Of a stretch of 64,000 nucleotides of DNA, positions 9,184-56,894 are shown piece after piece; position 1 is the stretch's first letter, and the number at the start of each line of letters is the position of its first letter. This DNA comes from a virus. Made by a program: the position numbers and the translations under genes. The DNA is taken from positions 1-64,000 of IMG/VR virus record IMGVR_UViG_3300028029_000002. The stretch is one strand, 5' to 3'. A model generated the notes under the pieces. That model did no database searches. It was not told where the DNA came from and saw only the letters and a program-made list of their open reading frames with translations.

Positions 9184-12100
9184 TAACTTAACTCCAATTC
9201 CTTAGCTATGGATAATCCTTCGACGGCTCCGGCACGGGCATCGTTGGTGTTCACCGAGACGTTCACACTTCTGACATCCTGGCTAACAATCGCTCCTAGT
9301 ATCTGTTGAAGCACGCTGATAACTCGTGGGTCTCCGCTATTAGCCAGTGCGTTCAGATTCGAGTTCGTCAAAGGCCCAACTCTCTGCTCGAAAGTCTTGG
9401 TCAGATTGCTATTCAGGACATACTCACCCGGATGAAGGACAGCCGTGCCACCCTCACCGGTGTATCCGCCGTTCGCGTAATATTTAATCCGCCCCGTGCT
9501 CACGCCACCGCCCAATGCGCTTCTTAATCTGCGGGCCCCGGCTGCGGCGGAGCGCAATGACGCACTGAGCGAACCAAATATCTCAACGCTCCGCGCCCCC
9601 TCATTGGTAATCTTGCTCACGCCAGCCTGGAAGTTCTGGACTGTCATTTGGATTGCCTGGATTGCTCGCTGTTGTGCATAGGTTAACCGTAGGTGCTGCT
9701 GAGCATTTTGCAGGGATCGTTGCTGACGATTGAGTTGGTTCATCGTCATCGCTCGATTGATCGCATTTAGACGCATGCGCAAAGCCGTTTCCTGCTCGAA
9801 GTATGCGTTTTGCCGAGCGAAACGGGTACTCTCCCATTCCATTCTTTTGTTATGCCGATCTTGCGCTGTGTTGAAGTCTTCTTCTGCCCATTGGCGTTGT
9901 ATGTCTAAGCGACTTCTCTGTTCATCTATCTGTGATTGGCCAAGCGCAAACTTGATAGTCCCTCTGTCCTGTTGCCGGAGCAAGGCCCTCCGTTGCCGTC
10001 CCGTGGCGTATTTGAGGTTTTCCTGTATATCCTCCATAGCCCACGCAAAATCGAGCTGGGACGTATTTTGTCTAAAATTCAGATCGCTTTCAGACCAACC
10101 AATTCGCGTCATGCTACGGTTAAAATTCTTTAGCAAGTCATCCATTCCCCATTGCCATTGAATTTCGAATCGGCTCCACGAATCTTGCATTTGTTCGCGC
10201 TGCTTCTGGACGCCGATGTTGAAGAGTTGATCTTGTATATCCAATTTCTCCGGGACAAACTTCAAGTTGTCGGCTAAGTCCTCGAATTGCAGGCTCAGCT
10301 TAAACATGGAGTCTCGATACCCCTCAGCCGCACTTTCGATTTGAAGCTGTTGTAATCCTTTTCCCTCAACGGCCCCGAACGCAGGCATCATTCCGTCACC
10401 CGATCCAAACTTCTCTATGGCGTCCAGCCCTTTGTGGGCAACCTGTATCGGGATAGCATCTTGAGCGAATCCGACAAAAGCGTTGTGCATTGCGGCCTCG
10501 AATGTACCACCTTGTCCTATGTACGACTCTATGCCTTGATACTGTTCACCATCAACTTTGAACCCATATCGCATTGCTTGCCCTAACTCCGTGTCAGAAC
10601 TTGGCAAATTTTCATATCCGATCTGGAATCCGCGAGTTGTCTGTTTCTGGAAAATTGCAGGCATTGATTCCCCACCGCCGAACCAGCTTTGCAATACATC
10701 CGGGAGCGCATCCCATAAGCTCTCGGATTTCATCTTGCTTGCGGCCCATGGATTCCCGGATTGTACTTGCGTGAGCATACGCATCGCGTCGTTTTGCTTC
10801 TGGACAAACTCTTCGTCTACTGGAAGTGTCTGCATACCATACAGGGGGTCTACGCGCCCCGGTACTGCGACCTCCATTCCAGTGACCAAACTTTGCACCT
10901 CTTTAGTCAATAGCGGAAGCGTGTTGAACATTTGCGCTTCGCTTCTGACCAGGGAATCTCTCTGGCTTTGCAGTGGCAACTGTCCGGCTTGAGCAACAAA
11001 AGAATCGTTGTAAGTTAGGCCAAGCGAGCCGAGTGCGTTTGCTGTACTGTAATATTGCGCAAGACCGGCTCGTTCAGTGACGCTCTGGTTTTCTTGAGAA
11101 AAGTCTTCAATAGACTTTGTGACAACTTGTCCCATTCCCTGTTTTGCGCCTGCGTATTGTAGGAAACCGGACATAGCTTGTGGAAGCATGCCTTTAATTG
11201 ACATGTTTTCGTAAGCCGATCCGGTGAATGCTTGTTTGAGGAAATCCAGTTGCGCCGCTTCTGTAGTCTTTCCTTCTCCCATTGCCTGAACCCAGGACAA
11301 ACTCATTTGATATGTAGCTTCGGGAGAAAGGCCAACCAGTCTTGTGTCTAAGACATTACCAAGCATCGTCCCAATTTCAGCCCCCCTGGACTGAAATTCA
11401 TTTCCGGGTACAGCTCTCCGCATACCAGTTGTTGCGACATTTCCCCACAACGATCCGGCTATTTGCAATCGTTCGTCTCTCATTTCTCCGGTTGCGCCAC
11501 CGGAAATTCCAACACGGAGTGATTCAAATTCCTTTCCCCCACGCGAACCGAACATGTACGACCGTGTGGCACCATTTACATTACCGGTTGATTCAAAGTC
11601 CTTTTTTATGTCAGTCCAGTATGGTAAAGCCGCATCATTGTACGCGGATGTATAATTTCCTTGTTTTGCATATTCTCTAGCTACAAACAGACGGTTTGCT
11701 GGCGATGCGTTTCCAGCCGCAACCTCAGCTTTCATTTTATCTGTGTCTTTTGCTTCCCCGGCGACCCGTAACCCTCCGAGCGTTAGGCCGGTCAGAGTGG
11801 TAGCGGCTAATCCGATTGGCCCAGCTGATCCGGCTATCATTGGAAGCATAGATGCAAGATTAGCAGCAACCAACCCAGTACCAATTGCGGCCCCACCTAT
11901 ACCGAGAACATCAGATACAGTTTGACTCCCAAGCCCATCACCGCCAAGCATGCCATTCGCGCCAGCCATTATGTATCCACCGGTGCGCATGCGAGACATT
12001 TTCATCTGTTGTAAATTTTCGACGACGTTCTGGCTACCTCTATCTATACCTGCGCCTCCCATCATACGATAGGCGTTCATTTGGTTTTGATACTGTTGAT

Positions 12101-15100
12101 ACTGTTCCCCGCCGCCAATCAGCGGTTGCAGAAATTGTCTGAACATCCGGGAAGTAAAGAACAGATCGGAACCCAATCCGGTGCGCGGATTTTTAAGTCG
12201 CTCGAAGAATCCTTTAATCCCACCACGTTCCGGTTTATCCCCGAACATACCTATGCCGAGTGAGGCAACATCGCCACGTTCTACAAGTTGTCTTTCCTCA
12301 TCGGACATCTCCCCCGCTTGCCCGGCAATCTCTTTATATTTCCTGAACACTTCGCGCCCGCGTTGAACCTCAGCAACTTCTTCTTTTGTGAGCTTGCGTT
12401 TGTTATTCTCCAAACTCTTGCTCATCTTTTCTAGGTTCTCTACCCACCCGCGCATTACGGGGGTTGCTTTTTTAAGTAAGGCTACGAACTGCTCATCGGT
12501 CTGCGTTTGCGGGCCGTCTATTCTTCTCTGTGCCGATTGCTGAGCGAAGCGGGTCTCTAAACTTGACATAACATCAGGCGATAGCACATTGGAAAACTTT
12601 CTCGCTAGAGTCATGTCGTCTTTTGATACTTCGCCGTTCAGCAATTTGTCGCTGAGAGCGGTGGCCATAGCAAGTGTTTCAGGATTCACCTCCACCTGCA
12701 CGCCACGCGCACCCCCGGATGTAGTCTTTGTCTTGGAGATGCGCCCGCGTATAACGCCACTTGGTTGAGTTGTTTCTGCCGTTGCCGTTTCCACCTCTGT
12801 AGCTACGGCCTCTGTATCCGGGGCGGTGAATTTTTTAGTTGCCGCTTCGAGGTATCGTTTGCGTATGTTTTCTTTTAGTGCCCCGATCTGTTCCGCCATG
12901 CCCGGTATGCCCGTGAACCCCGGCCCGACTTTTTGCAAGTCGCCAAGTGTCAGGGAGTCCGCGTTCTTGAGTAACACGTCAAGCGTTTCTTGTGCGGCGG
13001 CCAAGCGTTCCTCCGAGACTTTCGGCGCGGGTGCGGCTGAGGATTTTGCGTCGCTACCAACGCTCTGTATACGCCGGATACGCCACTGCTCTTCAAATTT
13101 GGCGACCTCTTTTTCCAGTTCCGGCATGCCCTTGGCGCCAGCTTTCGCCGCAGTGATTTCATTATAATTCAGAGAGTCGGAACGCTCGCGTAAGCTCTGC
13201 ATCATAACGTTAGCTGCTTCCTTGCGCTCCGGGGATACATCAACACGGTTCTGCGCCGCGTCTATCACTTGTTGTTCGTATCGCGCTTTGATTTCAGCGA
13301 CCGCCTTTGGGTCTAATGCGCTCTCAACTATTTTCAACGCGGACAGATCTTTCCTAGATAACACATCTCTACTTTGCAATGTGCTCAGAAGTCCTTGCGC
13401 ACGCGCGGCGTCCTGTTGGCTTATCGGGGCTTGTTTCTTTTCCTTCCCCGTTATGGCGGCATCCAATCTCTGTTGTTTGTACAAGGCCTGGATTTCTTCC
13501 AGGTCTGCCAGGCTTACCGCGTCGCCCTGTTCCTTAAGGACGGCCATATCGGTACTTGTAATCTTCTTGCGCTGACGCAAGGCCGCCACTAACGCCGCCG
13601 CTCGCTTCTGTTGTTCGGGCGCCGGCGGGGGCGGCGCGTCAAGAGCTTTTTGCATGTCGTCAATGCTCAAGTACAACGGCGACATTTGTTTCTTCTGCGT
13701 GGTTGTGAGCGGAGTATAGTTCGTGGGCTTTGATTCAGGCCCTGTGATCGCGGCGTTTAATTCCTGTTTGTCGTATCGTTCTTGGATAGCGTCGAATCGC
13801 TCCTGTCCAATAACGCCGATGTACTTCTTTAATGCCGTGATGTCCTTCGATCTGATCTTGTCGCGTTCCTCTAATGTGGAGGCTAACGACAAAGCCATGT
13901 TGCTTATATCTTCCGGTATCTCTTTCACGGCTTCTGCTCCTGCCGTGTATTCCCCGCTCAATATGGCCTCGCTCGTTTTCTGGAAGCTCGGCAATAGTTT
14001 AGCCATAGGCTCCGCAAATGACTCTATGCTTTTAGCTAAATCCTCGAATCCGGCTTCACGCATGGTCTCCGCTGTGGCAAGGATGGCTTTCGAGGAAGTT
14101 TCTAATCTCTCGGTCATCCTGAACCAATCTTGTTTCCCTTGCTGGGAAGTCGGCTCGCCGATAGCCATCATCTCTTGAGCACGTCGTATCTGCCATTGAT
14201 ATGATTGCGCCATCGCGCCACCCTCGCCAAATTGAGAGTACGCGATCTTGCGGGTCATACCGGCATCCATGTACGGATTGCGCCCTGTAGCCGCCAGTAT
14301 ATTTGCTAGGGTATTGGAAGCATTGACTGTGTGAATCGAAGGGGGCTTCACATTGCTGACAAGATCGACAGCCGCGTCAAATTGCCCGGCAACAACAGAT
14401 TTAGTTCTCCGTGCAAGGCCGGGATCGAATTGCCCGGATGCCATTGCGGATAAGCCTTTTAGGAAACGAGGCCCTACGCTGTTGTAATCCACGACGGGTA
14501 ACGTATACCGTCGTGCCATCTCGAAAATCTGAGCCATTATACCGCCCAATTGTTCACCGATGTCGTTCTGTTGCGCGTTTATCTGGGCTTCGGGTTGGGG
14601 TATGTTCTCCGGGGCTGGCGTAGCTGTCACCGCCTGTGTTTCGTCCGGTGTGGGCACAGTGAAATTGGATGCCTTGAAACCAGCAGCTGCGTCTACGGGT
14701 ATATTCTTTCTTTCCTCTGCGCGTTCGTTCAGCAGGACGTTCCGCCGTCTACCGGGATCAAAGCTGGGAGCAGCAGACGCGGAGGCTATTCTGGCAACCT
14801 CGTCCGCTGGCAGTTTCTCTAAATTGCGTAATAGTTTGGCCTCCCCAGTGGAAATTCTGGCATCGAGCATTTCTCCGGGCAAGTTCCTGTTATAGTATTG
14901 CGGAGTAGCGTTGACCACTTCATCTTTCCACACTCCACCGGTTTCATTCATAGCCCTATCAGCTATCGCGTCTAATACCGTACGTGGTACTACCCTTTCT
15001 ATCAAGTCTTTGATTGTTTTAACAACCGGATTGTCTGACAAATGCTCTGTGCCAATAGACATCGCCAATTCTTCTGGGGAGTATGGGAATCGTTGGTTTA

Positions 15101-18100
15101 TCTTGCCCTCTGCTATAGGTGCTTTAATTGCTTTGATCATGCTTCTGACGTAATGCCCTGCATCATCGCCGCTCGTCATACCCCCTATAATATCCCGAAT
15201 GAACCCGGATTTGAAGCCGCCTAACTGCATGCTGATGATATTATCTTGCGGCCCCATCGCACGAACGGACTTGCCCTCGAATGGGTTAAAGAACGTTCTG
15301 GCCGTTCGGTACAAGCGGGATATGGCATCTTCCTCTCGCTTAGTCAGCCCTTTCAAGTCCAAAGACCGCTGGTATAAGTTTGAAGCCTTTGCAATGTCTT
15401 CGTAGGCCTCAAGCATCTCTTTACCCTTGAGTCTCCCTTCGTCAACCGCGTTGAGAAATGCGCCGTTCAGTACGCGCAGGAAGGTATAAGTTGGCCCCAT
15501 ATTACGCTTAGCTTTAACGTAATCTATTGATCCTTGACTGATCTGTGCTGTTGTCGCAAAGAGTTCGTCTGGATCGTTGTTGACGTATTCACCGTCCCCG
15601 TTTCTCTTCACGAGTTTGAGCGACTTAAGGAATCGCTCCATTGGCGTGCCTTGTTCTGACTCGATCAGATCGTTCATGTCGCTGTAAATTGCCGACATCT
15701 GACTACCCGGAGCCGGATTCTCAGAGGCCATCCGCGCTAACGCCCCGGCAAATCGCTCGTCGTCAGATATGAGGTGTAACATTGCCTTGTCATCGGATGG
15801 ATCAACGCCGAAGGTTGCCCCACGTATTCCAGCACGGAATAATGTAACGTATCGATGCGCCTGCTTTATCGTGTCGACCCCTTGAGGTAACGCGCCCATC
15901 TCTAGCAATCTAGCCAAACTGTGTTTCTCAACTTGCCGGGCAGTCATGGCTTTCCCGCCAATATGCGCCTTGCGTAAATCGCCAGTCTCTTTGTCTAGCG
16001 ACACATTGCGCGTGAATTGAAGCAGGGCGGTGTCGAAGTCAACATCCGCCGACGCCGGTTCGTAAATTGAGTCAGAGGCCATTGTGTGTAACTGTTGGGT
16101 CATCGGGGCGTTCATCAATTCGAGAGCTATGTCAGATAATCCCTCTACCTCAAACGGATTGACCATACGCATTGGCAGAACTGAGTACAGAGGATCGGTT
16201 TCCGGTCTGCGGAAGAATGTTACCGCTTCGCCGTCAAGTTGGCTGTATAAATCGGACAGGATGTTCTGTTGCTCCGCAACATTCTCGGCTCGTGCCAGTT
16301 GCCCGCGCAGGCCGGGAACCATTTCTATCAGGTCTCGCGGCGGTATAAACACTCCACCTTCTGGCATGTTCATGTGGTATTGATAACCGACGTACAGCGC
16401 ATTGCGCAACTGCTTGTTTTGCACTCCGACATGTATGGCTTCTGTGTTAGCGAGTTCTTTCAATCTTGCGCGGTATTTGTCGACTCTGTCTATCTGATAC
16501 TCACCTTTGCTAGTCGTACTCGTCAGCAAACCAAACATCTCCCGGCTCGTACGTTCCAACTCTTCACCGGTTGCCGGATCAATGGTAGACATCTGCGCTA
16601 TTGCCGACAACGATGGCAGATAAACGTCGGTTCCCTCAAGGTGAATTGGGGCAACGGTGTCGAGTCCCTCGTATTTGCCTAGCAACTTCCTGAACAAGTC
16701 GGACGATCTGAAATTTGGCCCCTTCTTCTCGCGGATTTCATCCATCACTTCGTTAACAGTTTGAGCGGGAAGGGTCAGAATATGTTCGTCTTCCTTAACT
16801 GGGCTTCCCTCCATTATCTTGTTCGCCCTAATGATGGATGCGTTGGTCAGTTGCGCACGTCGTGCCTTGCGTTGTATCCCTTCGTACATTTCTGGGTTTG
16901 ACACTTTATACAGCATTGCCTCTTCTGAGTTCAATTGCGTGTTACCATGTGTAAACTCTGCCGTAACCGGGAACAAGGCGTCCATAGTCACGAACGAAAC
17001 TTTGTCTTGGTCTCCCATTTTGAGCGCGTATGATGCTGCCTGTGCGCCAGTCGTCAGGGAAATCTCCCCCTCGCCGGTCTGCGCTCGCTCGAAGAGTTGG
17101 CGCGTAGCCTCAATCATCTCTTCTTCGCTATAATCGCTGGTCAGGAAATCGTTAAATGTGTTGTCCCCGATGGCGTCAGCTACAGCCGTGGCAAATGAGG
17201 GCAGAGACTTTATGTCGTCTGATCCCAATACCATCGTCAGTCGTTTTCCGTCCTCACTCAACGCCTCCGCGTCACTCTCGCCAAAAAGCTCTTCTGCCAT
17301 TTCGTACGTGAGTGTACGCATATACGCCTTGATCCCCATGTGTTTGCTAGTAAAGTTTGAGGTGCGTGCTACCAGGGGCAGTGATATGGAAGCACCCTCA
17401 CCCTTGAAACCTTCCGAGGCGCGAAACTCTTTACTGTCTACGTTTAGCCCGACTTCCGAGTACGAGTTCCCCACAGCGAGATGCACGGGGACTTGTACGC
17501 TCTCACCCTTTTTCTGATCCCACTCCTTGCGGAAGCCTATGCGTATACGTCCATCGGCGGTACGGATTGTGTCACCCGATAGGAATTTATCATCCCAAGT
17601 GAATCCGTCTGGTACATCAAACCGTTTGTTCAATTGCGTTTCTGCCATCACTTGCTTGACGCCCTTCGGGAGGATGATATATCCCATACCCTGAGAGATG
17701 GCTCCGGTGTTTAGCACGGCCAGCCTATAATTATTCCCTCTGTTCGGGCGTGATGAAGACGAAGCTCCTTTGGTAACGCCAATCGCGCTTGTAATGCGGT
17801 CTTGCCTGCCAGCAGTCACCGCAAGTGGGCCTTGCGAGCGGAGGGCTTTCCATGCATCCTTTGCAAATTTCACGGCTTTGTACGACGGACGACCGATGAA
17901 ATATCGACCGCTTGCTGCTTTCGTCATGCCGGGGACTCTACTTAGATATTCATCCACAGGGAAGGCTACGATTCTTGATTCTTTGTCTCCGCCCTCCGTA
18001 TTTGTGTCGTTTGCTGGCCGGTACATAAGTCGACCAGGCTTTAGGTCTTGAATGTTTACGCCCCGCAATTGTATACTATTTGCATCCGTCCATGTCCTCA

Positions 18101-19703
18101 CTGGCGGTGCGCCGGGTGATGTATCCGGTCTAGTCAGCCCGCTGTTTTTGCCCTTAATACGGGCCGCCAGTGCGCGTTCCATTGCCTCGAATACACCCAC
18201 GCTTCGCGGAGTCTCAGCCGCCAATGTCGGGTCTACTCCGCGTTCCGGCTTATCAACGATTGGAGTTGCCGCATATCCGCCGATGACCGGGCCGTGCGGC
18301 GTGAGTTTTATGGGGATATTGTAATCTTGTCCACCCTGCGCAACTACCATAACCGAGTAGCCCGGACTGTATTCTCTGAACCCCATAACGGTATACCCGC
18401 CCGGTATTTCGTCACCGGTTTTCACCGTTTCTCCGCCGATACGTAATGCGCTCTGTGGTTTTCCGGCAATATATGTGAGTTCCGGCGAAAATCCGGTGTG
18501 GCTAATAGAAGTCCCCTGCGCTTGTGTGGCGGTAATAAGTCGTAATGCCTGGCTGGGGTCTCCGGCAACATCGTGTTGTATGGACACTCGACTTATGCTG
18601 ACACCACTATTGATCGTGGACAACAGGGCGTTCAAAGTTTCAAATTCTTTCTCCTCGCCGCCAACTGTTGCGGAGAATTTATCGCCCACTCCCACTCTAA
18701 CTGTTATGGGCACGGGTTTAACCGCTTTGGTCTTTCTGCTGAGTTGTACCGGCTTCCGTATTTTGATTTCCGGGACGGAGAACGTGGGTTGTGAAGACTT
18801 TGCGGTGGGGGCGGCTAAGGCAGCCGCTTGTAGAGCTTTCACGTCATCAGACGTAAGCTCTCCCGCTATAGCATGCTCGACAATCGAGGCTATTGCGGAA
18901 CCTGGCAACACGGAAGCGGCTCGTGCCAACCTAGCCTTCGTTTCCCGTGCATATTCTCCCGTGAGTGTCCAGGTACTGCGCTCGGTGGGCTGGCTTTGTT
19001 TCTCGCGCACGGTTTTGCTGTTGACGATGACTCCGCGTACCTCTATGTCGTCCGGGCCGTACTTGTACCAGTCTTTATATTTTGTCCCGGCAAGTATTGA
19101 TTGCCGTTGACCTTCGGGCAAATCGAACCATCTCTGGCGGTACTCGTCAAGTTGGGCTTGGTAGTTTTTTGTGTACCGGGCCGCGTGTGGCCCTTTGAAG
19201 TCGTCTATGACAATATATCTTTTCCCATTCACCTTAAGCAACACTATGGCATCCGGCCTGAAATAGCCTTGTGAGTGTTTCTTTGCAATGCTCTCTGGGA
19301 TAATGTGTTCCTGCGCGAGTTTACGCAGTGAGCTTTCGCGCTCATACTCTGTGGAACCAGATACTTGTCTGTCAAGGATTTTCTTGGCTTCGCTGGGGTC
19401 GCCCACTATATCTTCTAACGCATATTGCATCAGGTTGTGGGCCGTGTAGTTTCCACCACCTGTCGGATTGGACAGGTCTTTATCTATTGCGTTGTGGATT
19501 ACACTACCGGCTTGGAGCCATTCGGGGTTTACTTCTTCTAATCCGAGGGCACGCCGCAACAGATTACTGGCCTCTAGCGCGGCTGCTCTGTTGTCACGTG
19601 TTACGTTGTTTAGAACATAGTTTACTACTTGAAATACAGCGTCGGTATCAGTCTCGGTGTAACCTAACGAACTGGGCCATATCCCGTTTATATCGAACTT
19701 CAT
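9183..19703 (-). CDS. giant tape-measure-like protein (3506 aa) with a long non-TMP-like N-terminal region
   Basis: Single uninterrupted ORF. It has a Gly-rich hydrophobic segment (GIGGAAIGTGLVAANLASMLPMIAGSAGPIGLAATTL) and a Q/R-rich coiled-coil C-terminus. It sits after the chaperone-like gene and before the tail tip genes. Confidence 0.75.
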   Translation of the reverse strand: MKFDINGIWPSSLGYTETDTDAVFQVVNYVLNNVTRDNRAAALEASNLLRRALGLEEVNPEWLQAGSVIHNAIDKDLSNPTGGGNYTAHNLMQYALEDIVGDPSEAKKILDRQVSGSTEYERESSLRKLAQEHIIPESIAKKHSQGYFRPDAIVLLKVNGKRYIVIDDFKGPHAARYTKNYQAQLDEYRQRWFDLPEGQRQSILAGTKYKDWYKYGPDDIEVRGVIVNSKTVREKQSQPTERSTWTLTGEYARETKARLARAASVLPGSAIASIVEHAIAGELTSDDVKALQAAALAAPTAKSSQPTFSVPEIKIRKPVQLSRKTKAVKPVPITVRVGVGDKFSATVGGEEKEFETLNALLSTINSGVSISRVSIQHDVAGDPSQALRLITATQAQGTSISHTGFSPELTYIAGKPQSALRIGGETVKTGDEIPGGYTVMGFREYSPGYSVMVVAQGGQDYNIPIKLTPHGPVIGGYAATPIVDKPERGVDPTLAAETPRSVGVFEAMERALAARIKGKNSGLTRPDTSPGAPPVRTWTDANSIQLRGVNIQDLKPGRLMYRPANDTNTEGGDKESRIVAFPVDEYLSRVPGMTKAASGRYFIGRPSYKAVKFAKDAWKALRSQGPLAVTAGRQDRITSAIGVTKGASSSSRPNRGNNYRLAVLNTGAISQGMGYIILPKGVKQVMAETQLNKRFDVPDGFTWDDKFLSGDTIRTADGRIRIGFRKEWDQKKGESVQVPVHLAVGNSYSEVGLNVDSKEFRASEGFKGEGASISLPLVARTSNFTSKHMGIKAYMRTLTYEMAEELFGESDAEALSEDGKRLTMVLGSDDIKSLPSFATAVADAIGDNTFNDFLTSDYSEEEMIEATRQLFERAQTGEGEISLTTGAQAASYALKMGDQDKVSFVTMDALFPVTAEFTHGNTQLNSEEAMLYKVSNPEMYEGIQRKARRAQLTNASIIRANKIMEGSPVKEDEHILTLPAQTVNEVMDEIREKKGPNFRSSDLFRKLLGKYEGLDTVAPIHLEGTDVYLPSLSAIAQMSTIDPATGEELERTSREMFGLLTSTTSKGEYQIDRVDKYRARLKELANTEAIHVGVQNKQLRNALYVGYQYHMNMPEGGVFIPPRDLIEMVPGLRGQLARAENVAEQQNILSDLYSQLDGEAVTFFRRPETDPLYSVLPMRMVNPFEVEGLSDIALELMNAPMTQQLHTMASDSIYEPASADVDFDTALLQFTRNVSLDKETGDLRKAHIGGKAMTARQVEKHSLARLLEMGALPQGVDTIKQAHRYVTLFRAGIRGATFGVDPSDDKAMLHLISDDERFAGALARMASENPAPGSQMSAIYSDMNDLIESEQGTPMERFLKSLKLVKRNGDGEYVNNDPDELFATTAQISQGSIDYVKAKRNMGPTYTFLRVLNGAFLNAVDEGRLKGKEMLEAYEDIAKASNLYQRSLDLKGLTKREEDAISRLYRTARTFFNPFEGKSVRAMGPQDNIISMQLGGFKSGFIRDIIGGMTSGDDAGHYVRSMIKAIKAPIAEGKINQRFPYSPEELAMSIGTEHLSDNPVVKTIKDLIERVVPRTVLDAIADRAMNETGGVWKDEVVNATPQYYNRNLPGEMLDARISTGEAKLLRNLEKLPADEVARIASASAAPSFDPGRRRNVLLNERAEERKNIPVDAAAGFKASNFTVPTPDETQAVTATPAPENIPQPEAQINAQQNDIGEQLGGIMAQIFEMARRYTLPVVDYNSVGPRFLKGLSAMASGQFDPGLARRTKSVVAGQFDAAVDLVSNVKPPSIHTVNASNTLANILAATGRNPYMDAGMTRKIAYSQFGEGGAMAQSYQWQIRRAQEMMAIGEPTSQQGKQDWFRMTERLETSSKAILATAETMREAGFEDLAKSIESFAEPMAKLLPSFQKTSEAILSGEYTAGAEAVKEIPEDISNMALSLASTLEERDKIRSKDITALKKYIGVIGQERFDAIQERYDKQELNAAITGPESKPTNYTPLTTTQKKQMSPLYLSIDDMQKALDAPPPPAPEQQKRAAALVAALRQRKKITSTDMAVLKEQGDAVSLADLEEIQALYKQQRLDAAITGKEKKQAPISQQDAARAQGLLSTLQSRDVLSRKDLSALKIVESALDPKAVAEIKARYEQQVIDAAQNRVDVSPERKEAANVMMQSLRERSDSLNYNEITAAKAGAKGMPELEKEVAKFEEQWRIRRIQSVGSDAKSSAAPAPKVSEERLAAAQETLDVLLKNADSLTLGDLQKVGPGFTGIPGMAEQIGALKENIRKRYLEAATKKFTAPDTEAVATEVETATAETTQPSGVIRGRISKTKTTSGGARGVQVEVNPETLAMATALSDKLLNGEVSKDDMTLARKFSNVLSPDVMSSLETRFAQQSAQRRIDGPQTQTDEQFVALLKKATPVMRGWVENLEKMSKSLENNKRKLTKEEVAEVQRGREVFRKYKEIAGQAGEMSDEERQLVERGDVASLGIGMFGDKPERGGIKGFFERLKNPRTGLGSDLFFTSRMFRQFLQPLIGGGEQYQQYQNQMNAYRMMGGAGIDRGSQNVVENLQQMKMSRMRTGGYIMAGANGMLGGDGLGSQTVSDVLGIGGAAIGTGLVAANLASMLPMIAGSAGPIGLAATTLTGLTLGGLRVAGEAKDTDKMKAEVAAGNASPANRLFVAREYAKQGNYTSAYNDAALPYWTDIKKDFESTGNVNGATRSYMFGSRGGKEFESLRVGISGGATGEMRDERLQIAGSLWGNVATTGMRRAVPGNEFQSRGAEIGTMLGNVLDTRLVGLSPEATYQMSLSWVQAMGEGKTTEAAQLDFLKQAFTGSAYENMSIKGMLPQAMSGFLQYAGAKQGMGQVVTKSIEDFSQENQSVTERAGLAQYYSTANALGSLGLTYNDSFVAQAGQLPLQSQRDSLVRSEAQMFNTLPLLTKEVQSLVTGMEVAVPGRVDPLYGMQTLPVDEEFVQKQNDAMRMLTQVQSGNPWAASKMKSESLWDALPDVLQSWFGGGESMPAIFQKQTTRGFQIGYENLPSSDTELGQAMRYGFKVDGEQYQGIESYIGQGGTFEAAMHNAFVGFAQDAIPIQVAHKGLDAIEKFGSGDGMMPAFGAVEGKGLQQLQIESAAEGYRDSMFKLSLQFEDLADNLKFVPEKLDIQDQLFNIGVQKQREQMQDSWSRFEIQWQWGMDDLLKNFNRSMTRIGWSESDLNFRQNTSQLDFAWAMEDIQENLKYATGRQRRALLRQQDRGTIKFALGQSQIDEQRSRLDIQRQWAEEDFNTAQDRHNKRMEWESTRFARQNAYFEQETALRMRLNAINRAMTMNQLNRQQRSLQNAQQHLRLTYAQQRAIQAIQMTVQNFQAGVSKITNEGARSVEIFGSLSASLRSAAAGARRLRSALGGGVSTGRIKYYANGGYTGEGGTAVLHPGEYVLNSNLTKTFEQRVGPLTNSNLNALANSGDPRVISVLQQILGAIVSQDVRSVNVSVNTNDARAGAVEGLSIAKELELS

Positions 19704-33807: not shown

Positions 33808-34050
33808 CTATTCTACTACCTCTTTCTTAGTAGTCAACTTGTCTATGATGTACTGCCATCCGTTAGGCCCATGCGGGATTAAACAATTTGAGCAATCCTT
33901 TACGCCGTTTTCTAGGATTGTATAGTTTCCACCACAATCCATATTATAGAGGGGACAGAAGCAGAACAGGCAATTCACCTCATCTATCCCCTTATGGCAT
34001 GGATAGTATTGGCACTCTTTGTTGCTAAAGAACTTGAAAGACGATTTCAT
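33808..34050 (-). CDS. cysteine-rich small domain protein (80 aa)
   Basis: Pattern ECQYYPCH...NCLFCFCPLY...CGG...GVKDCSNCLIPH matches the 'cysteine-rich small domain' family (PF04071-like) as I recall it. Confidence 0.55.
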   Translation of the reverse strand: MKSSFKFFSNKECQYYPCHKGIDEVNCLFCFCPLYNMDCGGNYTILENGVKDCSNCLIPHGPNGWQYIIDKLTTKKEVVE

Positions 34051-35695
34051 CTTCTGGCACTTTTGAACATTCTTTGCAAGCGACTAGCGGCTCTTCTTCA
34101 CGGCTCTGGGCGCGATAGACAATGATGTTCTTGATCCCGTTTTCCCATGCGTAGCTCACGGCAAACTCAACGTCGGCTTCCGTCGCATCGTATGGCATGT
34201 TCACAGTCTTTGAGATGGACTCCGTGATGAACGCTTGGGCGGATGCCACAATAGACAGGTGTTCAACGATGTTCAACTCGTGGGCGGCTACAAATGCAGG
34301 ATAGCGCGTCAAGGCCGTTCCTTCAATCGCTTGGGAACCATCACCGAAGTTCCTGACATAGCCCGGAGCGAAAATCGGTTCGATGCCGTAACCTTCTGTA
34401 CTCATGGTCTGACTCCCGAATGAACTGGGAGCGGCTACGGTAAATCCGCAGTTACGGATACCATCGGGTAGGTGCCGCTCGACGATTTCCCAATCTAGGT
34501 ATGGACGATTAAAGTCGTAATGTTCCTTGTTCCACGGGCGCGGTTTCTCCCATTCTCCGTAAGCATATATGCTATCTTCAAACAACGGGAAAGCTCCACG
34601 TTCTACGGCTAACTTTTCGCTCTCAAGCATGGAATGATAGAGGATGAATTCGTACAATTGTCCTACTAAATCAACGCTCTCGTCACTGCCGTATTTGATT
34701 CCCATCAATACCAGCATGTCCGCAAAGCCGGTGATGCCATTCCCCATTCGGCGCGTTTGTTTGGCAATGCGGCTCATTTCAGGCACGCTCGGAATATAAT
34801 GATTGGCGTCAATCAAATCGTCCATTGCACGTGTGGCAATACGTACAGTTTTCGCAAGTTTATCCCAATTCACTTTGCCCTGTTTTACAAACTTCGTCAT
34901 GTTGATGTATCCGGGTTGGCATGATTCGCTGCTGAACAGGAAGAACTCAGAACACGGGTTCGTTCCTTGCAATGGGCCGTATCCGGGAATAGCATTGTGC
35001 CGGTTGGCGGTGTCGATGAACTGCACGCCAATCCCGCCGTTGACCCACATTGCATGGATCAGCGCGTTCCACACTACGGGATCTGGGTTTTCCATGAACG
35101 AATCCGTGACCAGGAGGTTCGTGTTGAATACGCTCAAGGAGTTCTCGTCAAGTTTCGCGTTGATAAAGCGCAAGAGTTCTTTCTGATCGGGGTAATCACT
35201 GTGCAGGGCCACATTATTCGCGCCCTGCAAGTATCCACCCTGCTGAACGGTTTTTAAGATCGGGACAAAGGATTTAATGAATTCCAATGGCCCTGTGGCT
35301 CTACCACCAGTACTTCGCACAATGTCGCCCGGAGGACGTAGATTTGATACGCCCCATCCGACGCCGCTACCGAGTTGCTGTGCTGACAGTGCTTTCTTGA
35401 GAGTGTTGACAATGGAATCGGCCCCGTCTATGAAGCTGTCTTCCATCTCGAAAAACGTACACGCCGATGTTAATCCCGTGCGTCCAGCTCCGAACCACGC
35501 CGGGCGATTAGGAACCCATTCCAGGTTGTGCATCACACGATGTAGGAACGGGTAAAATTTACCGGGATGATAATCGTAAGTGGCGATTGCCATTGCGACG
35601 CGCTCGAATGAGGTTTCAACTGATTCAATCACGTTGCCGTTGATGTCCCGACGAAGGTACTTCTGGAAAATCCTCTTTGCTTGCTCTGTTAACAT
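34025..35695 (-). CDS. nrdJ: ribonucleotide reductase, class II-like (556 aa)
   Basis: Active-site block GTNPCSEFFL...SCQPGYINM (the NPC-E thiyl Cys/Glu motif). C-terminal Cys pair ACKECS. RBS AAGGAG. Confidence 0.7.
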   Translation of the reverse strand: MLTEQAKRIFQKYLRRDINGNVIESVETSFERVAMAIATYDYHPGKFYPFLHRVMHNLEWVPNRPAWFGAGRTGLTSACTFFEMEDSFIDGADSIVNTLKKALSAQQLGSGVGWGVSNLRPPGDIVRSTGGRATGPLEFIKSFVPILKTVQQGGYLQGANNVALHSDYPDQKELLRFINAKLDENSLSVFNTNLLVTDSFMENPDPVVWNALIHAMWVNGGIGVQFIDTANRHNAIPGYGPLQGTNPCSEFFLFSSESCQPGYINMTKFVKQGKVNWDKLAKTVRIATRAMDDLIDANHYIPSVPEMSRIAKQTRRMGNGITGFADMLVLMGIKYGSDESVDLVGQLYEFILYHSMLESEKLAVERGAFPLFEDSIYAYGEWEKPRPWNKEHYDFNRPYLDWEIVERHLPDGIRNCGFTVAAPSSFGSQTMSTEGYGIEPIFAPGYVRNFGDGSQAIEGTALTRYPAFVAAHELNIVEHLSIVASAQAFITESISKTVNMPYDATEADVEFAVSYAWENGIKNIIVYRAQSREEEPLVACKECSKVPEDEIVFQVL

Positions 35696-38317: not shown

Positions 38318-38427
38318 GTTTAAATTTTTTTTCGCGGGAAGAGAGGATTAGTGTCTGGTTCACGATGTCAAAGTGAACCGGGGGGTATCTTTATATCTCT
38401 CATGGACGCTTGGATGTTGTCAGCAAA

Positions 38428-38709
38428 CCCACCTAGCAATAGGAAGGGACAATAAGAACACAAGCCGGGACGCCTGATGAGGGAAATACCCGTGAAGTTG
38501 TTCGACCACCACGTTGTGATACTCGCGTGGCTAAACAAGTCTAGTATCACCCCACGTTTCACAGGGTAGCGTGGTTAATCTTCACCCTGGTGTCGTTGTT
38601 CGCCGTTGACAAAGCTTCGGTCAACCGCGTGTAGTATCCAGAAGCCGTTGTGCTGATGCCTCACCGCAAGGGAGGAACAAGTAGGCATGACGCAACCATG
38701 GAGGTTGAA
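38428..38709 (+). ncRNA. conserved structured leader element, copy 1
   Basis: Shares blocks with 39529..39817: an identical 21-mer, the loop ACGCCTGATGAGGGAA and an identical 38-mer. At least three helices show compensatory differences between copies. Confidence 0.6.
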
Positions 38710-39030
38710 ATGTATTCCAATAAAGAAATTCGTGCCACGTCGTCCGCTAAGGTTGTTCAGATGCTGTTTGTTATTGCTGCAATCATTGTGTTTGTGGCGA
38801 TAGCGGTTCCGTATGTTCTCTCGACCGTTCGCACGGTCGAAGTCGCCAGCGGTGGCGACTTAACGGCGGTGGGTTGTCAGGCGGAGTACACCACCTGGCA
38901 AGATGGGGGCGAATTCCCCTCACAGACGTGCTCCGAAAGCACGTCCGGTATTGAGTTGTGGTGTGAGAACCACAACGTTACCGATGGAAAAATGGCGCAG
39001 GCATGCGCCAACGTCAAGGCGGGTAAGTAA
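38710..39030 (+). CDS. membrane-anchored Cys-containing small protein (106 aa; start refined)
   Basis: GGAGGT-5 nt-ATG at 38710. TM segment VVQMLFVIAAIIVFVAIAVPYVL. Confidence 0.6.
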   Translation: MYSNKEIRATSSAKVVQMLFVIAAIIVFVAIAVPYVLSTVRTVEVASGGDLTAVGCQAEYTTWQDGGEFPSQTCSESTSGIELWCENHNVTDGKMAQACANVKAGK

Positions 39031-39511: not shown

Positions 39512-39528
39512 TTGGTGTTGGCATAAAG

Positions 39529-39817
39529 CCCACCTAGCAATAGGAAGGGCGTATATAGGACACTAGCCTGGGACGCCTGATGAGGGAAGTACCCAGGAAG
39601 CATGTCCGCACACCACGTATGTTCTGACGTGGCTAAACAATGTGCAGAACACCCCCACGTTCTATAGGGTAGCGTGGTTAATCTTCACCCTAGCGGATGT
39701 CCATCCAATCCATTGCAGAGATTACTCCGCTTGGCAATGTGTGCGTTAGGAGTTGCCGTGCTGATGCCTCACCGCAAGGGAGGAACAAGTAGGCACGGTA
39801 TGACCCAGGAGGTCGAA
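39529..39817 (+). ncRNA. conserved structured leader element, copy 2
   Basis: See copy 1. It precedes the RNAP-like gene directly and ends in GGAGGT-5 nt-ATG. Confidence 0.6.
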
Positions 39818-42097
39818 ATGTCCAAGATTTATAAAGCAGTAGAGTTGGTAGTTAAGAATACCTCGATCACGATTGAGGATAAGGGCAGCACTAATGCCGC
39901 CCGTGATGACCGCATGAAGCGGTACATCACATCCGAGGTAGAGAGAGAGTGTCTAGCCGCCCACATCGGGTGGTTGGACAGCAGCACTTTCGTCAGTATC
40001 CCCCACACGGGCGTCGATGGCAAAGCAATTGACGTTGACTCCTACCAGCAGTTATTGGTAGGGGCACAGGGTAGTGGCGTATTAGTCGCCACACAAAGTG
40101 GCGAAAAGGCGGGGAACTACATCCGCCTGACCGCCGAGGCGTGGGAGCGGTTCGCCGCGCCCCTGCGGGGGAAAGTCAGGGGCGCGAAAGCCTTGCAGGT
40201 GGCGGGGTTGTTATTCTCCGCCACGACGAAGGATCAATATTCCGTTGAGTCCGCAGTCGTCATCACCCCCGGCCATCCCCTTGACCGGGGGCAAGATGGT
40301 AATGGGATGGCCCCGAAATCCCTGACCCCCACCACCGTCCAGGTGCGGTTCGCCGCCCTGGACGCGGCTGGCGAAGTTGACGCCAGCCGTGTGGGTAAGG
40401 GGATTCTCAGCCCCACGTCCCCCGATGGGAGGGTGTATTTGCACCACTCCCAATTGAAAGGGGCATGGGACATTGCCCCCTGGGAAGAAGGACAAGAGGA
40501 AATCGTTGTCAGCGTCCTCGTTCTTCGGAATGAGGGCGTTTCCGCTGAGCGCATTATGCGCGACCCGGAGACCGGAAAGGTCTCACTCCGCGCAAAGCGG
40601 AGTTGGATGAGCAGTGAAGTCACCGCCCTCTTCTCACCGTCAGCCAATCTTCACCTGGCGGAAGGCGGGGAGGGGATTCATTCCCAGAAAGTCCGCCGTG
40701 AGGTCGAGAACCTCACGGGGATGTTCAGCGAGGAGGGGCGTGTTTCCCTTCTCAAACGCTGGGGCGGGCTAGAGTTGGACGAGGAGGGCCATTTGCTGCC
40801 CTCCAAGAACGCGGGCATTGAGGCTCTTCGTACCCCCCTGCCCTGGTGCAGGGAAGTAGAGGAATTGCTGGGGCGTTTCGCTGTACCAGAAGTGGTACAG
40901 ATAGCTCACGGGGCTGGCATCCCCGTGAAGGTATCGCTTCTCGTCCAAGACGAGAAGTACGGACGCAAGCCCATCTCCCTGAAAGCCGCCCTGAAGAGGG
41001 TGGCGGAAGGGAAGCGGGTTTGGGGACTCTATCGGGTTCCCGTAACGGGCACACAGGCGATCCAGTGGTTCACCCGCGCCCCTTATAAGAGGGGTATCGG
41101 GTTCGTGATCGCTCCGTCCGCCGCGAAAGGCATGGACGGGGATAGCGACGGAGACCCCGGATACCAAATTGACCCAAAGGACGCGCCCGCAGTGGCGCAG
41201 TCCCTGGATACGCGCTTGAGCGGGTCTGGCAAGCCCGCTAAACAGGCGAAGCCGGATTTTCCGCTCAATAGTATGTCCGTCTTGGAGTATTGGATGGACA
41301 TGCTTGTCCATCACCCCCTCGTGGGGCGTGCCACGACCCTGTCGTGGCGTCTCATGCGGGATGGTCGCCACGAGGACGCTGTGTTAGCGTCCACGGCGGC
41401 CAACGCCGCCCCGATGCTGGCGAAGCATCGGGTGGACATTGACGGCGAAGCCGTCTCCGACATCGTGTACCGTCTTTCGGAGGAGGAACGTGCCCGCGCT
41501 CCGAAGACCGGAGATGGATACTCCATCATTGCGCCATTGCAATGGCGCGATTGGAAGGCGGCGTCGAAGCCGCTCCGTTCCCTGCGCCAAATGGCGTGGG
41601 GCAACGGTTCCCCGGAGAGCGTTCTCGACGAGTTGTCCATCGTCGCCACCCGCGCTGTCGAAGCGTGGGCGGCGAAGCCCGTTGGGGAACTCACGTTCAG
41701 CCGCACCGCCCGGTTGGTCTTCGCCCGTCGAGGGCGGTTGTTGCCGGGATGGGCGGTGCGCTCCGCCGCTCGGATCCGGGCCGAGTGGGCGAACTTCTGG
41801 ATCGCCCACATCCGCCGCGAAGGAGATAAAGTCTCCTTCATCGGCAATGATTTTGATACGATCTACAACGCCGTCCGCGAGTGGGGCGCGGCGGCTGATG
41901 TAGAGAGTCTTGCGGCATTGATGTCGCACCGCCGCAAGAGCGGCGAATCAATGCGGCTCAAGTGGGCCGCAATCTTCGACACCCACCGAGGTGTCGAAGT
42001 GTTGGGCCTCCACCCAGCGGTGGAGGAGGCATTGGGCGCGGACTACAAACGCGCCAAGTTAGTGGACGCGCTGGTTGCGTCCCTTGAAGAGGAGTAA
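39818..42097 (+). CDS. YonO / RdRP-like single-subunit two-barrel RNA polymerase candidate (759 aa; start refined from 39674)
   Basis: Motif ...GLYRVPVTGTQAIQWF...GFVIAPSAAKGMDGDSDGD, with DSDGD encoded at 41141-41155. This resembles the R-x-P...aP....DxDGD catalytic loop of the DPBB RNAP/RdRP family. Size is similar to YonO. Confidence 0.55.
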   Translation: MSKIYKAVELVVKNTSITIEDKGSTNAARDDRMKRYITSEVERECLAAHIGWLDSSTFVSIPHTGVDGKAIDVDSYQQLLVGAQGSGVLVATQSGEKAGNYIRLTAEAWERFAAPLRGKVRGAKALQVAGLLFSATTKDQYSVESAVVITPGHPLDRGQDGNGMAPKSLTPTTVQVRFAALDAAGEVDASRVGKGILSPTSPDGRVYLHHSQLKGAWDIAPWEEGQEEIVVSVLVLRNEGVSAERIMRDPETGKVSLRAKRSWMSSEVTALFSPSANLHLAEGGEGIHSQKVRREVENLTGMFSEEGRVSLLKRWGGLELDEEGHLLPSKNAGIEALRTPLPWCREVEELLGRFAVPEVVQIAHGAGIPVKVSLLVQDEKYGRKPISLKAALKRVAEGKRVWGLYRVPVTGTQAIQWFTRAPYKRGIGFVIAPSAAKGMDGDSDGDPGYQIDPKDAPAVAQSLDTRLSGSGKPAKQAKPDFPLNSMSVLEYWMDMLVHHPLVGRATTLSWRLMRDGRHEDAVLASTAANAAPMLAKHRVDIDGEAVSDIVYRLSEEERARAPKTGDGYSIIAPLQWRDWKAASKPLRSLRQMAWGNGSPESVLDELSIVATRAVEAWAAKPVGELTFSRTARLVFARRGRLLPGWAVRSAARIRAEWANFWIAHIRREGDKVSFIGNDFDTIYNAVREWGAAADVESLAALMSHRRKSGESMRLKWAAIFDTHRGVEVLGLHPAVEEALGADYKRAKLVDALVASLEEE

Positions 42098-42397
42098 AAT
42101 CCTCCCCCCTGACACCGTGGGGGTCACAGCAAAGGTGTCGGTGCGCCGCATTGCGGTTCCTGTGCAACTCAGGATTAAAGCACCGTGTCGGTAGTCAAAC
42201 CGACGCTCAGGTTGGTGTAAGCAAGCATTTGCCGTGTCCTGACTTCCTGGGAAGCAGAACATAGCAAATGTGCGGTAGGACAACGGGACGATCTCCTGGG
42301 AGACGCGAAGTTGTTCCTGCCCGCTTGCACCAACCTGCCGCTCCACAGGAGTGGGGCCAGGGGTATGGTCAGCGATTGCGTAAGACCTCCTCCTTAA

Positions 42398-42441
42398 GGG
42401 GGATACAAGGTATAACGCAGCCTTGTATCCCCCGCTTTTTC
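42398..42441 (+). terminator. intrinsic terminator
   Basis: GGGGGATACAAGG-tataacgcag-CCTTGTATCCCCC followed by GCTTTTTCT. Confidence 0.75.
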
Positions 42442-42549
42442 TAAGGGACGGTGAACAGGCGGGCGCATGAAGCAGCTTGCCATATCACCGCCCCTTAGAA
42501 AAGGCCGGGAGGATCGGCCTATTATTCATTATAACCTGGGAGGTTTATT

Positions 42550-42855
42550 ATGTTTTCCATTAGCTATACGAAACATGGTGATGTTGAGACTGTGGTGTAT
42601 CAATGTGGCTGCGTGAAAGTCAACAATCAATTGCGTCGTTGTGCCGCGCATCAACGCGAGCACGAACGGCAAGTTGAGGCCAAACGCCTGCGCTTGCAAG
42701 CACGAGCCGTGCTGCACTTGCGCTCCCCACTGTCGTTTAGCGAGGGCGCATGGGTCGTCCGCACCCTCCGTGGAAAGAGTACTGTTGCGGAGTACCGCAA
42801 CCTCGTCACCCTGCACCGCACGCCGCGTGAAGCGGCGCGTGCGGTGTGTCATTAG
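42550..42855 (+). CDS. hypothetical protein (101 aa)
   Basis: RBS GGGAGG upstream of ATG. Confidence 0.6.
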   Translation: MFSISYTKHGDVETVVYQCGCVKVNNQLRRCAAHQREHERQVEAKRLRLQARAVLHLRSPLSFSEGAWVVRTLRGKSTVAEYRNLVTLHRTPREAARAVCH

Positions 42856-42973
42856 TCTGATTTGGGGGCGGGTAGCAATACTCGCCCCCAACCTTTTTCT
42901 CGGCCCATCACCCGCTGGTAGGCCGAGAAAAGGGCTGCTGTTCCTGCCCCTCACACACCATATAGGAGATATT

Positions 42974-51864: not shown

Positions 51865-52530
51865 ATGTTTTATAAATTCCCCCGCACACCACATCTGAGA
51901 TGGCTAAGCAGTTCACCAATCAAGGATGATCGCCTTTTAAGCGACGCACAGAGAAAAGACATCCTCAGCAGCCCACTAATCATCGAAGAGAAAATTGACG
52001 GAGCCAATCTCGGATTCTCCCTATCCGAGGATGGGAAAATTCTAGCTCAGAAACGGGGGGCGTATATAGACTCTGTTGGACAGTTCGCGGAACTCGACAG
52101 ATGGCTGAGAACACACGAAGATCATCTATTCGATGCCATCTCAACCAATTTGATTCTGTTCGGTGAATGGTGCGCTATAAAACACAGTCTGTACTATACA
52201 AAATTGCCAGACTTGTGGATCATGTTCGACGTATACGACATCAACGAAGAAAAATTCTATAACGCCGAACGAAGAAACACCCTCGCTAGAAACGCCGGGG
52301 TGAGCACTGTTCATCGCATAGCAACAAGGCGGTTCACAGAACACGAATTATTAGATTTGCTAGGCACAGATAGTACCTACAAAAAAGGAGCTATCGAGGG
52401 TCTAGTGATACGCTCCGAGAATGAAAGGTGGCTGGAAAAACGCGCAAAATTAGTCCGACCTGAATTCACTCGAATCTCTACCCACTGGACACGAAAACGA
52501 TGGGTGAGAAATACAATACAAAGGAGGTAA
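51865..52530 (+). CDS. ATP-dependent RNA (or DNA) ligase-like nucleotidyltransferase (221 aa)
   Basis: N-terminal FPRTPHL and motif I EEKIDGANLG (KxDG), then GEWC. This matches the pattern of the small RNA_ligase family. Confidence 0.6.
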   Translation: MFYKFPRTPHLRWLSSSPIKDDRLLSDAQRKDILSSPLIIEEKIDGANLGFSLSEDGKILAQKRGAYIDSVGQFAELDRWLRTHEDHLFDAISTNLILFGEWCAIKHSLYYTKLPDLWIMFDVYDINEEKFYNAERRNTLARNAGVSTVHRIATRRFTEHELLDLLGTDSTYKKGAIEGLVIRSENERWLEKRAKLVRPEFTRISTHWTRKRWVRNTIQRR

Positions 52531-56797: not shown

Positions 56798-56870
56798 GCG
56801 GGTATAGCCTAATGGATAAGGCGACTGTCTTCTAAACAGTAGAGTGCAGGTTCGAGTCCTGCTACCCGTA
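56798..56870 (+). tRNA. tRNA-Arg (anticodon UCU)
   Basis: Cloverleaf read by eye: acceptor GCGGGTA/TACCCGT (one G-U), D stem GCCT/AGGC, anticodon stem ACTGT/ACAGT with loop CTTCTAA, T stem GCAGG/CCTGC with loop TTCGAGT, discriminator A. Confidence 0.85.
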
Positions 56871-56894
56871 CATCCTAGTAAAGGAGAAAATATT

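Follow-up and report, generated by a model that had tools for sequence, protein, structure and literature searches.

The window analysed here comprises the 64,000 nucleotides (nt) at positions 1-64,000 of the virus record IMGVR_UViG_3300028029_000002, and all coordinates of the polymerase gene refer to it. On its plus strand, at 39818..42097 (stop codon included), lies a gene for a single-chain protein of 759 amino acids (aa) which by fold belongs to the two-barrel RNA polymerase (RNAP) superfamily and by sequence constitutes a distinct new family. The coding sequence was delimited from the open reading frame (ORF) and its translation, the alignment of homologs, an AlphaFold2 (AF2) model and Foldseek comparisons. 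The longest frame spans 39674-42097 (plus strand) and opens with GTG at 39674; the homologs all align from the methionine encoded by the ATG at 39818, which gives the 759-aa protein. Direct reading of the sequence places a Shine-Dalgarno sequence, GGAGG (39808..39812, plus strand), 5 nt before this ATG, where it is overlapped by the last hairpin of a structured leader. A first-pass annotation had reported the ORF, a DSDGD motif at 41141-41155 with the peptide around it, a size similar to that of the phage polymerase YonO, a GC-richer island, a structured leader upstream and about 450 nt of hairpin-dense non-coding sequence downstream, and each of these observations was borne out. The quoted peptide is correct, YonO has 839 aa, and the G+C content of the gene is 61.2% (72.5% at third codon positions) vs 49.0% for the rest of the window. 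In each of the six loci compared (the window, L001, L005, L006, L008 and L010) the polymerase gene was found to be richer in G+C than the remainder of the locus, so that the GC island appears to be a property of the gene family and not of the window phage alone.

Apart from this DSDGD, no D.DGD occurs in any of the window's six frames. By chance, 0.23 occurrences would be expected in these frames and 0.01 inside the 759-aa protein, and the motif alone thus constitutes weak evidence. It rises above chance because it is conserved in 29 relatives whose identity to the query is only 23-53% (alignment A3), essentially every family member carrying the form (G/R)D(S/A/G)DGD. Across this alignment D442, D444, D446, G503, T506, P532, K536 and W576 are invariant, while K194, G195, K214, P408, G445, K472, A528 and M533 are conserved in at least 90% of the sequences. 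R406 is found in most of them, and the R-x-P segment to which it belongs sits 36 residues upstream of the DxDGD motif.

The family is rare, so far unannotated and, among the relatives found, confined to uncultured phages. A collection of 5.8 billion proteins yielded only five full-length relatives (44-52% identity), and when 1.84 billion cluster representatives were searched exhaustively with a HMMER profile, no more than 44 proteins reached E<=1e-3, of which about 26 were full length. The relatives that were looked up are either unnamed or annotated as 'hypothetical protein'. The family was not found with close-subfamily patterns in IMG/VR and GTDB representative genomes, a metagenome scan produced only three short loci, and tblastn of P0001, P0009 and P0018 against 50,697 deposited phage records, SPbeta included, gave no match. 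Our literature search found no paper describing the family. In addition, the phage-RNAP survey table in PMC10770324 contains no DSDGD, DADGD or DGDGD motif, which is weak evidence that the family lies outside that survey.

Structure prediction provided the clearest assignment. The AF2 model built from the 29-sequence alignment has a mean pLDDT (predicted local distance difference test) of 90.7 and a pTM (predicted template modelling score) of 0.88, with 557 of the 759 residues above a pLDDT of 90; an earlier model built from six sequences was poor (pLDDT 52.8) and was not used. When the model was compared with the PDB using Foldseek, the 50 matches listed, to which our statements apply, were all two-barrel RNA polymerases aligned over nearly the full length. 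The best belonged to Neurospora QDE-1 (E 7e-12 to 1e-9; query-normalized template modelling score, TMq, 0.44-0.51; alignments of 920-980 columns) and Arabidopsis RDR2 (E 6e-11). They were accompanied by Thermus phage P23-45 gp64 (8F72; E 5e-9; target-normalized score, TMt, 0.50-0.53) and P74-26 gp62 (8F5M; E 3e-8). Bacterial beta-prime (E ~2e-4, TM ~0.1), P23-45 gp96 (8H2N; E 7.6e-4, TM 0.20) and crAss-like phi14:2 gp66 (6VR4; E 7.6e-4, TM 0.24) were matched less well. A search of the viral predicted structures in BFVD also retrieved P23-45 gp64 (A7XX94), together with a phage protein named 'RNA dependent RNA polymerase'. The nearest structural relatives, as far as the predicted model indicates, are thus the QDE-1/RDR group and the Thermus-phage gp64 group.

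These results bear on the interpretation given in the first-pass annotation, namely a YonO- or RdRP-like (RNA-dependent RNA polymerase-like) single-subunit two-barrel enzyme, which is supported overall. The two-barrel part of the proposal stands by model and by Foldseek, while membership in the YonO family does not, since only 34 columns align. Foldseek on a predicted structure had been named beforehand as a test, and it returned only two-barrel RNAPs among the matches listed. The reading of R-x-P, strand and DxDGD as the Mg-binding loop of the superfamily agrees with the invariant triad and with the alignment to the gp64, gp96 and YonO loops. The motif does not fall in a disordered, non-conserved loop; it lies between a helix and a strand of the model, with invariant aspartates and a pLDDT of ~94-97. 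The second barrel with conserved basic residues, for which the annotation had also called, may be recognized in the beta-rich stretch of aa 141-263, where K194-G195 and K214 are at least 90% conserved, its topology being assigned by alignment. Finally, no hidden Markov model (HMM) assigns the protein to an unrelated family.

The domain anatomy was derived by combining the secondary structure of the model and conservation with the published structure-based alignments of gp64, gp96, QDE-1, gp66, beta/beta-prime and PolD (PMC10770324, supplement). All parts are encoded on the plus strand. The N-terminal domain, delimited by model and conservation, covers aa 1 to ~120. It is followed by a block conserved in 27 sequences (aa 122-137, 40181..40228), in which a helix (aa 122-131 in the model) and a GLLFS motif may form a duplex-binding helix leading into the first barrel; in the published alignment its position is that of the duplex-binding helix of gp64 and QDE-1, a mapping made by eye and with hhalign. 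The candidate beta-like double-psi beta-barrel (DPBB-B) is beta-rich and extends over aa 141-263 (40238..40606). It is suggested by strands with pLDDT >90, by conservation and by a match of relative P0010 to positions 167-324 of the PF05183 profile, and it lies within the stretch aligned by Foldseek, over the full length, with QDE-1 and gp64. Its motifs D160-G-N-G163 (40295-40306), Q175-x-R177 and K194-G195 (40397-40402) are collinear with the GDG, QVR and KG of gp64, and K214 (40457-40459) follows. The KG motif is located on strand beta4 of DPBB-B in gp64 (AWKGVIV), gp96, QDE-1 (SAKGMWV), beta and PolD (PMC10770324), and K194-G195 matches it.

A helical connector (aa 266-365 in the model) separates this region from the candidate beta-prime-like barrel, DPBB-A (aa 369-477, 40922..41248), which is indicated by the invariant triad, by hhalign to gp96, gp64 and YonO and by Pfam RdRP matches at profile positions ~426-506. 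It carries R406-x-P408 (41033-41041), the putative metal-binding D442-S-D444-G-D446 (41141-41155) and K472-P-x-K475 (41231-41242). Two long helices of the model span aa 485-514 and 518-535. The former is a candidate bridge helix (41270..41359) with the invariant G503 and T506, and the helices carrying these residues correspond to 'ILGRVE' of gp64 and 'LGMCT' of QDE-1 in the bridge helix. In hhalign G503 is paired with gp64 G381, located in the published gp64 bridge helix, in a match that is not significant (probability 5%). The latter helix and the loop after it (aa 518-541, 41369..41440) form a candidate trigger-loop-like segment with the conserved A528-N-A-x-P532-M-x-x-K536; by eye, it resembles 'NAPVDNAK' of crAss gp66 and the basic residue of the gp64, gp96 and QDE-1 trigger loops. 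The remaining helical domain (aa 546-759, 41453..42094), with conserved W576, R590, W617, W657 and W661, would by analogy be the clamp/C-terminal region.

At the sequence level the links to known families are faint. The query matched nothing in Pfam, PHROGs or the PDB-chain sequences (phmmer for the PDB), PF05183 gave no match to it at E<=1, and the family profile retrieved only noise (bL9m, EndoU) from PDB sequences. The only recurring Pfam signal among the relatives is PF05183 (RdRP), found in 7 of the 29 members at 12-20 bits (best E 3.6e-4), all under the gathering threshold of 23.8 bits; the relatives thus fall outside this family as Pfam delimits it. The matches are nevertheless collinear with the model, the DxDGD region and the N-terminal barrel region of P0010 falling on the profile positions given above. 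In hhalign the family was aligned with the gp64 family (A6) over 114 columns, reaching from RxP past DxDGD as far as the glycine of the bridge helix (E 0.0075, probability 5%), and when only the N-terminal halves were used 116 columns were aligned, with DGN/GDG, QxR/QVR and KG/KG paired (E 0.028). The corresponding comparison with gp96 aligned RxP...DxDGD over 111 columns (E 0.006), while that with YonO was limited to the 34 columns around the motif (E 0.013, probability 3%).

Among the known enzymes, QDE-1 and the eukaryotic cellular RdRPs (RDR2; PF05183) are the best structural matches listed (as a group E 7e-12 to 1e-9, TMq 0.43-0.51, ~830-980 columns), sharing with our protein the single chain, the beta-like barrel placed first and the beta-prime-like barrel second, and the DxDGD loop. 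However, identity is 11-13%, the solved chains exceed the phage protein by ~170-300 residues, and those enzymes are eukaryotic while this one comes from a phage. QDE-1 is, moreover, a homodimer with RNA- and DNA-templated activity, whereas the phage protein is known here from sequence and model. The closest phage enzyme by structure is P23-45 gp64 with its counterpart P74-26 gp62 (together E 5e-9 to 4e-8, TMt 0.50-0.53). It is likewise a free-standing single chain with a crab-claw-type layout, its gene is located in an early, non-structural region, and a giant tail-region ORF is found in both phages. Its motifs are also collinear with ours, i.e. GDG with DGN, QVR with QxR, KG with KG, then RxP, DxDGD and LG with VG of the bridge helix. 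In contrast, identity is 12-13%, gp64 has 616 aa and the motif DYDGD, the profile comparison is not significant, and the virion RNAP partner of the gp64 system is not supported in the window phage, whose giant ORF has no supported polymerase domain. The structural similarity to gp64 is real but of superfamily level, and the protein is not a member of the gp64 family.

SPbeta YonO is also a single-chain phage two-barrel RNAP of similar size with a catalytic aspartate triad, but it is not among the structural matches listed, the sequence alignment is confined to the surroundings of the motif, and YonO has no recognizable trigger loop (PMC5467207). As judged from these comparisons, the two proteins belong to different families. 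The virion RNAPs gp66 and gp96 share the two-barrel core but superpose poorly (TM 0.20-0.24), and they are domains of giant virion proteins. As for the multisubunit enzymes, the KG motif of beta is present in the phage protein, which is a 759-aa single chain and lacks the numerous lineage-specific domains. The spacing of RxP...DxDGD, 36 residues, is close to that in Escherichia coli beta-prime, where NRAPTLH and NADFDGD are separated by ~35 residues. Given that the protein falls outside the YonO, PF05183 and gp64 families, is absent from the deposited phage genomes and has no describing paper among those found, we consider it the representative of a new family within the two-barrel superfamily.

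The position of the gene was also found to be conserved. In the window the minus strand carries, from ~37.9 kb leftwards, the genes for ribonucleotide reductase, portal protein and a 3,506-aa ORF, while from 38.7 kb the plus strand carries a rightward array of ~45 mostly small ORFs with almost no PHROG matches. The polymerase gene is the fourth of this arm, the first being located at 38710-39030. In the window, L001, L008 and L010 it lies 2-6 genes past the divergent junction and, away from the structural arm, heads a long series of small ORFs on its own strand; this placement is kept in L001, L008 and L010, relatives as distant as 24-31% identity, in which unusually long non-coding gaps follow the gene. 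An enzyme that is expressed early and is not part of the virion would be expected in such a position, as is the case for P23-45 gp64.

The gene is flanked by candidate RNA structures on both sides. A conserved structured RNA element (42138..42208, plus strand), identified with a covariance model in four independent loci, lies 41 nt past the polymerase stop and is single-copy in the window. Elements of ~70 nt occupy the same place after the gene in L005 (3547-3616), L001 (12320-12383), L010 (7731-7803) and L011 (5019-5091), even though in L010/L011 the polymerase protein is only 31% identical. The element consists of two hairpins and UAAA inside an outer stem, then a 7-bp hairpin. In the alignment 96% of the cells are paired vs 28-45% in slid controls, 11 of the 21 pairs show compensatory changes, and the observed values were reached by none of 500 shuffles. 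The ~300-nt structured 5' leader, recognized by its duplication and shared fold, occurs twice on the plus strand, before the first gene of the rightward arm (38410-38712) and directly before the polymerase gene (39512-39820); up to the start codons the two copies cover 38410..38709 and 39512..39817. Blocks of 86-92% identity alternate with variable helices between the copies, and 12 of the 73 predicted pairs carry compensatory changes. The leader sequence was not found by blastn upstream of the homologs, and neither the leader nor the 3' region was matched in Rfam, even at E<=1. The same phage was also assembled independently (L004, Logan SRR8439058; 79.4 kb), and that assembly starts 52 nt upstream of the polymerase ATG, inside the duplicated leader, which suggests an assembly break at the repeat.

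Downstream of the gene, 452 nt of hairpin-rich non-coding sequence separate the polymerase stop from the next called gene at 42550. This interval includes an intrinsic-terminator-like hairpin, recognized by consensus match (42398..42443, plus strand; 14-bp stem followed by GCTTTTTCTA), which is the probable 3' end of the polymerase transcription unit. It is one of two similar strong terminator-like hairpins, at 42398-42443 and 42862-42901 (plus strand), with stems of 13-14 bp each followed by C(C/G)CTTTTTCT, and it is overlapped by an inverted repeat with 25-nt arms at 42430-42509.

Furthermore, each of four polymerase-bearing contigs (the window, L001, L008 and L010) was found to possess a perfect palindrome of its own, mainly intergenic, at copy numbers for which at most 0.02 copies would be expected. 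In the window this is the 18-nt TAGTTCGCATGCGAACTA, with six copies at <=2 mismatches vs 0.01 expected (sites of 18 nt each at 7815, 20740, 36672, 43485, 50274 and 58139). These sites lie mostly in intergenic gaps, beside terminator-like hairpins or ~10-25 nt upstream of ribosome-binding sites. The respective palindromes are CTTCTAACATGTTAGAAG in L001 (three copies; 5948, 13126 and 17373), TRTCGATCGAYA in L008 (14 copies, e.g. 9875, 14663 and 16470) and TCCTGCTNNAGCAGGA in L010 (seven copies, e.g. 3313, 3348 and 9607). They are candidate operators, or candidate promoters or terminators of the phage enzyme.

Taken with the enzymes already characterized, these features indicate that the 759-aa protein is very probably a working two-barrel RNA polymerase. 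Its parts follow an order typical of single-chain two-barrel enzymes, i.e. N-terminal domain, GLLFS helix, beta-like barrel, connector, beta-prime-like barrel, bridge helix, trigger-loop-like segment and C-terminal domain. The R406-x-P408 strand and the D442-x-D444-G-D446 loop would hold the catalytic Mg2+, and by analogy K194 and K214 of the beta-like barrel may contact the nucleoside triphosphate and the RNA 3' end. For gp64 and gp96 (PMC10770324) as well as YonO (PMC5467207) it has been demonstrated experimentally that they are DNA-dependent RNAPs requiring the aspartate triad, the 3D>3N mutant of YonO providing a precedent for the dependence of RNA synthesis on the triad (PMC5467207). Since the head-of-array position beside the divergent junction is conserved in distant relatives, we read the protein as a DNA-dependent transcriptase of the non-virion type. 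Expressed early from the start of the rightward array, it would go on to transcribe the genes of the phage without the host polymerase, in the manner of P23-45 gp64 and SPbeta YonO. We consider it likely that the enzyme is catalytically competent and acts in this way as a single-chain, DNA-dependent, early RNAP, its activity, DNA template and timing being proposed from what is known of gp64, gp96 and YonO (PMC10770324, PMC5467207). The genome-specific intergenic palindromes are candidates for its promoters.

A number of observations weigh against this view. The links by sequence to known families are each below significance (hhalign probabilities 1-6%, Pfam scores of 12-20 bits vs 23.8), and for this reason the two-barrel assignment leans on one predicted structure together with motif conservation. 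The barrel topology and the placement of K194, K214, G503 and K536 are putative and come from alignment, and catalytic activity is proposed by analogy. QDE-1 and RDR2, which gave the best structural matches, depend on RNA or accept both kinds of template, which leaves room for a template preference other than DNA. In addition, no promoter for the enzyme was identified, the palindromes being candidates. In L001 two near-consensus sigma-70-type promoters (CCCCTTGACA-17-TATAAT; 14633-14665 and 18146-18178) lie inside the rightward arm, which makes it probable that at least part of that genome is transcribed by the host RNAP. A sigma-70 promoter scan of the rightward arm of the window found none convincing, a result that is uninformative because the host is not identified.

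It is conceivable, though in our view rather unlikely, that the polymerase and the nucleic-acid signals travelling with it form a phage transcription system that is self-contained and includes an RNA component. In such a system the ~70-nt 3' RNA element and the duplicated leaders would serve the enzyme as binding sites or templates, leading to autoregulation or QDE-1-like RNA-templated synthesis, and the palindromes would be co-evolving promoters or terminators. A related and still less probable explanation is that an enzyme of this fold uses chiefly RNA or single-stranded DNA as template, as in QDE-1 and the RDRs, copying or extending a specific RNA, synthesizing antisense or double-stranded RNA, or priming, with the 3' RNA element or the leaders as template or recognition site. 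The top structural matches, the RdRP family as the only Pfam signal, the long non-coding gaps after the polymerase gene in all loci and the covarying RNA element directly after the gene in four loci, including one with a protein only 31% identical, all speak for it. However, the characterized phage two-barrel enzymes (YonO, gp64, gp96 and crAss gp66) are all DNA-dependent transcriptases, Foldseek rank inside one superfamily is no predictor of template choice, and the RNA element is more simply explained as a regulatory or stability element of the 3' untranslated region.

It seems quite improbable that the polymerase is instead packaged in the virion and enters the cell together with the DNA so as to transcribe the first genes, as crAss-like gp66 or P23-45 gp96 would. 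Phage two-barrel RNAPs can be virion proteins, and the scan upstream of the rightward arm revealed no promoter of sigma-70-like type. Nevertheless, the gene is located in the non-structural arm, on the other strand and far from the portal and tail genes. It encodes a free-standing protein of 759 aa, in which the C-terminal (clamp-type) region is complete, and the match to gp64 (TMt 0.50-0.53) is far better than those to the flat, clamp-less gp96 (TM 0.20) or to gp66 (TM 0.24). We regard as highly improbable a two-barrel DNA polymerase or primase with PolD-like chemistry serving replication: the two-barrel core is common to PolD and the DNA-polymerase-like match in the window is only fragmentary, but no PolD chain is among the 50 structural matches listed and the overall architecture fits RNAPs. 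The explanation of DSDGD as a chance match in a protein that is not a polymerase could appeal to a motif that is not rare alone (0.23 expected in six frames) and to the lack of a significant HMM match to any family, but it is effectively refuted already by a triad that is invariant in 29 divergent sequences and by a confident model that matches polymerases only, over the full length.

All cellular genomes are transcribed by an enzyme whose minimal relatives are the single-chain two-barrel RNAPs, and to our knowledge few of these have been studied (YonO, QDE-1, crAss gp66 and P23-45 gp64/gp96). Phage enzymes of this kind are already known, while the family itself was previously unannotated and should be of interest to specialists. 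Being rare and compact, with an intact active site and a confident model, it is a data point for the evolution of the two-barrel core, and it links phage enzymes with the polymerases of eukaryotic RNA interference, as its nearest structural neighbours include both these and the Thermus-phage enzymes. It is also relevant to the search for small orthogonal transcription enzymes. The most novel leads are the linked RNA element and the palindromes: the covarying 3' RNA element and the per-genome palindromes are testable candidates for regulation or targeting, aspects not known for most such polymerases.

The window itself represents a very novel tailed-phage genome, the best deposited relative of its portal protein, from a Streptomyces phage, being 26% identical. 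The minus strand also encodes the large subunit of ribonucleotide reductase (34025-35695), and the annotations of the rightward array are an RNA ligase-like protein (51865-52530, plus strand; PHROG match), a DNA-polymerase-like fragment and a tRNA-Arg(TCT) (56798-56871, plus strand). The label 'long-tailed phage' used in the first-pass annotation rests only on the giant 3,506-aa ORF (9183-19703, minus strand), which is found in the tape-measure position and has no Pfam or PHROG match. This ORF was also considered as a second, virion-type polymerase on account of the segment 'RRPETDP...ADVDFDT' (~aa 1170-1226), an idea that was rejected as unsupported by sequence comparisons. One DxDxD is close to chance (0.53 expected), hhalign to the family profile gave nothing, there were no matches to PDB sequences, no homologs were retrieved, and BLASTP showed no similarity to the gp96 RNAP domain. 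Finally, a small gene with a Pfam match to Acb2/Tad1-hairpin, an anti-defence sponge, was observed in L008 (6166-6399) and L009 (184-417), a few kb from the polymerase gene of P0025, a distant family member.

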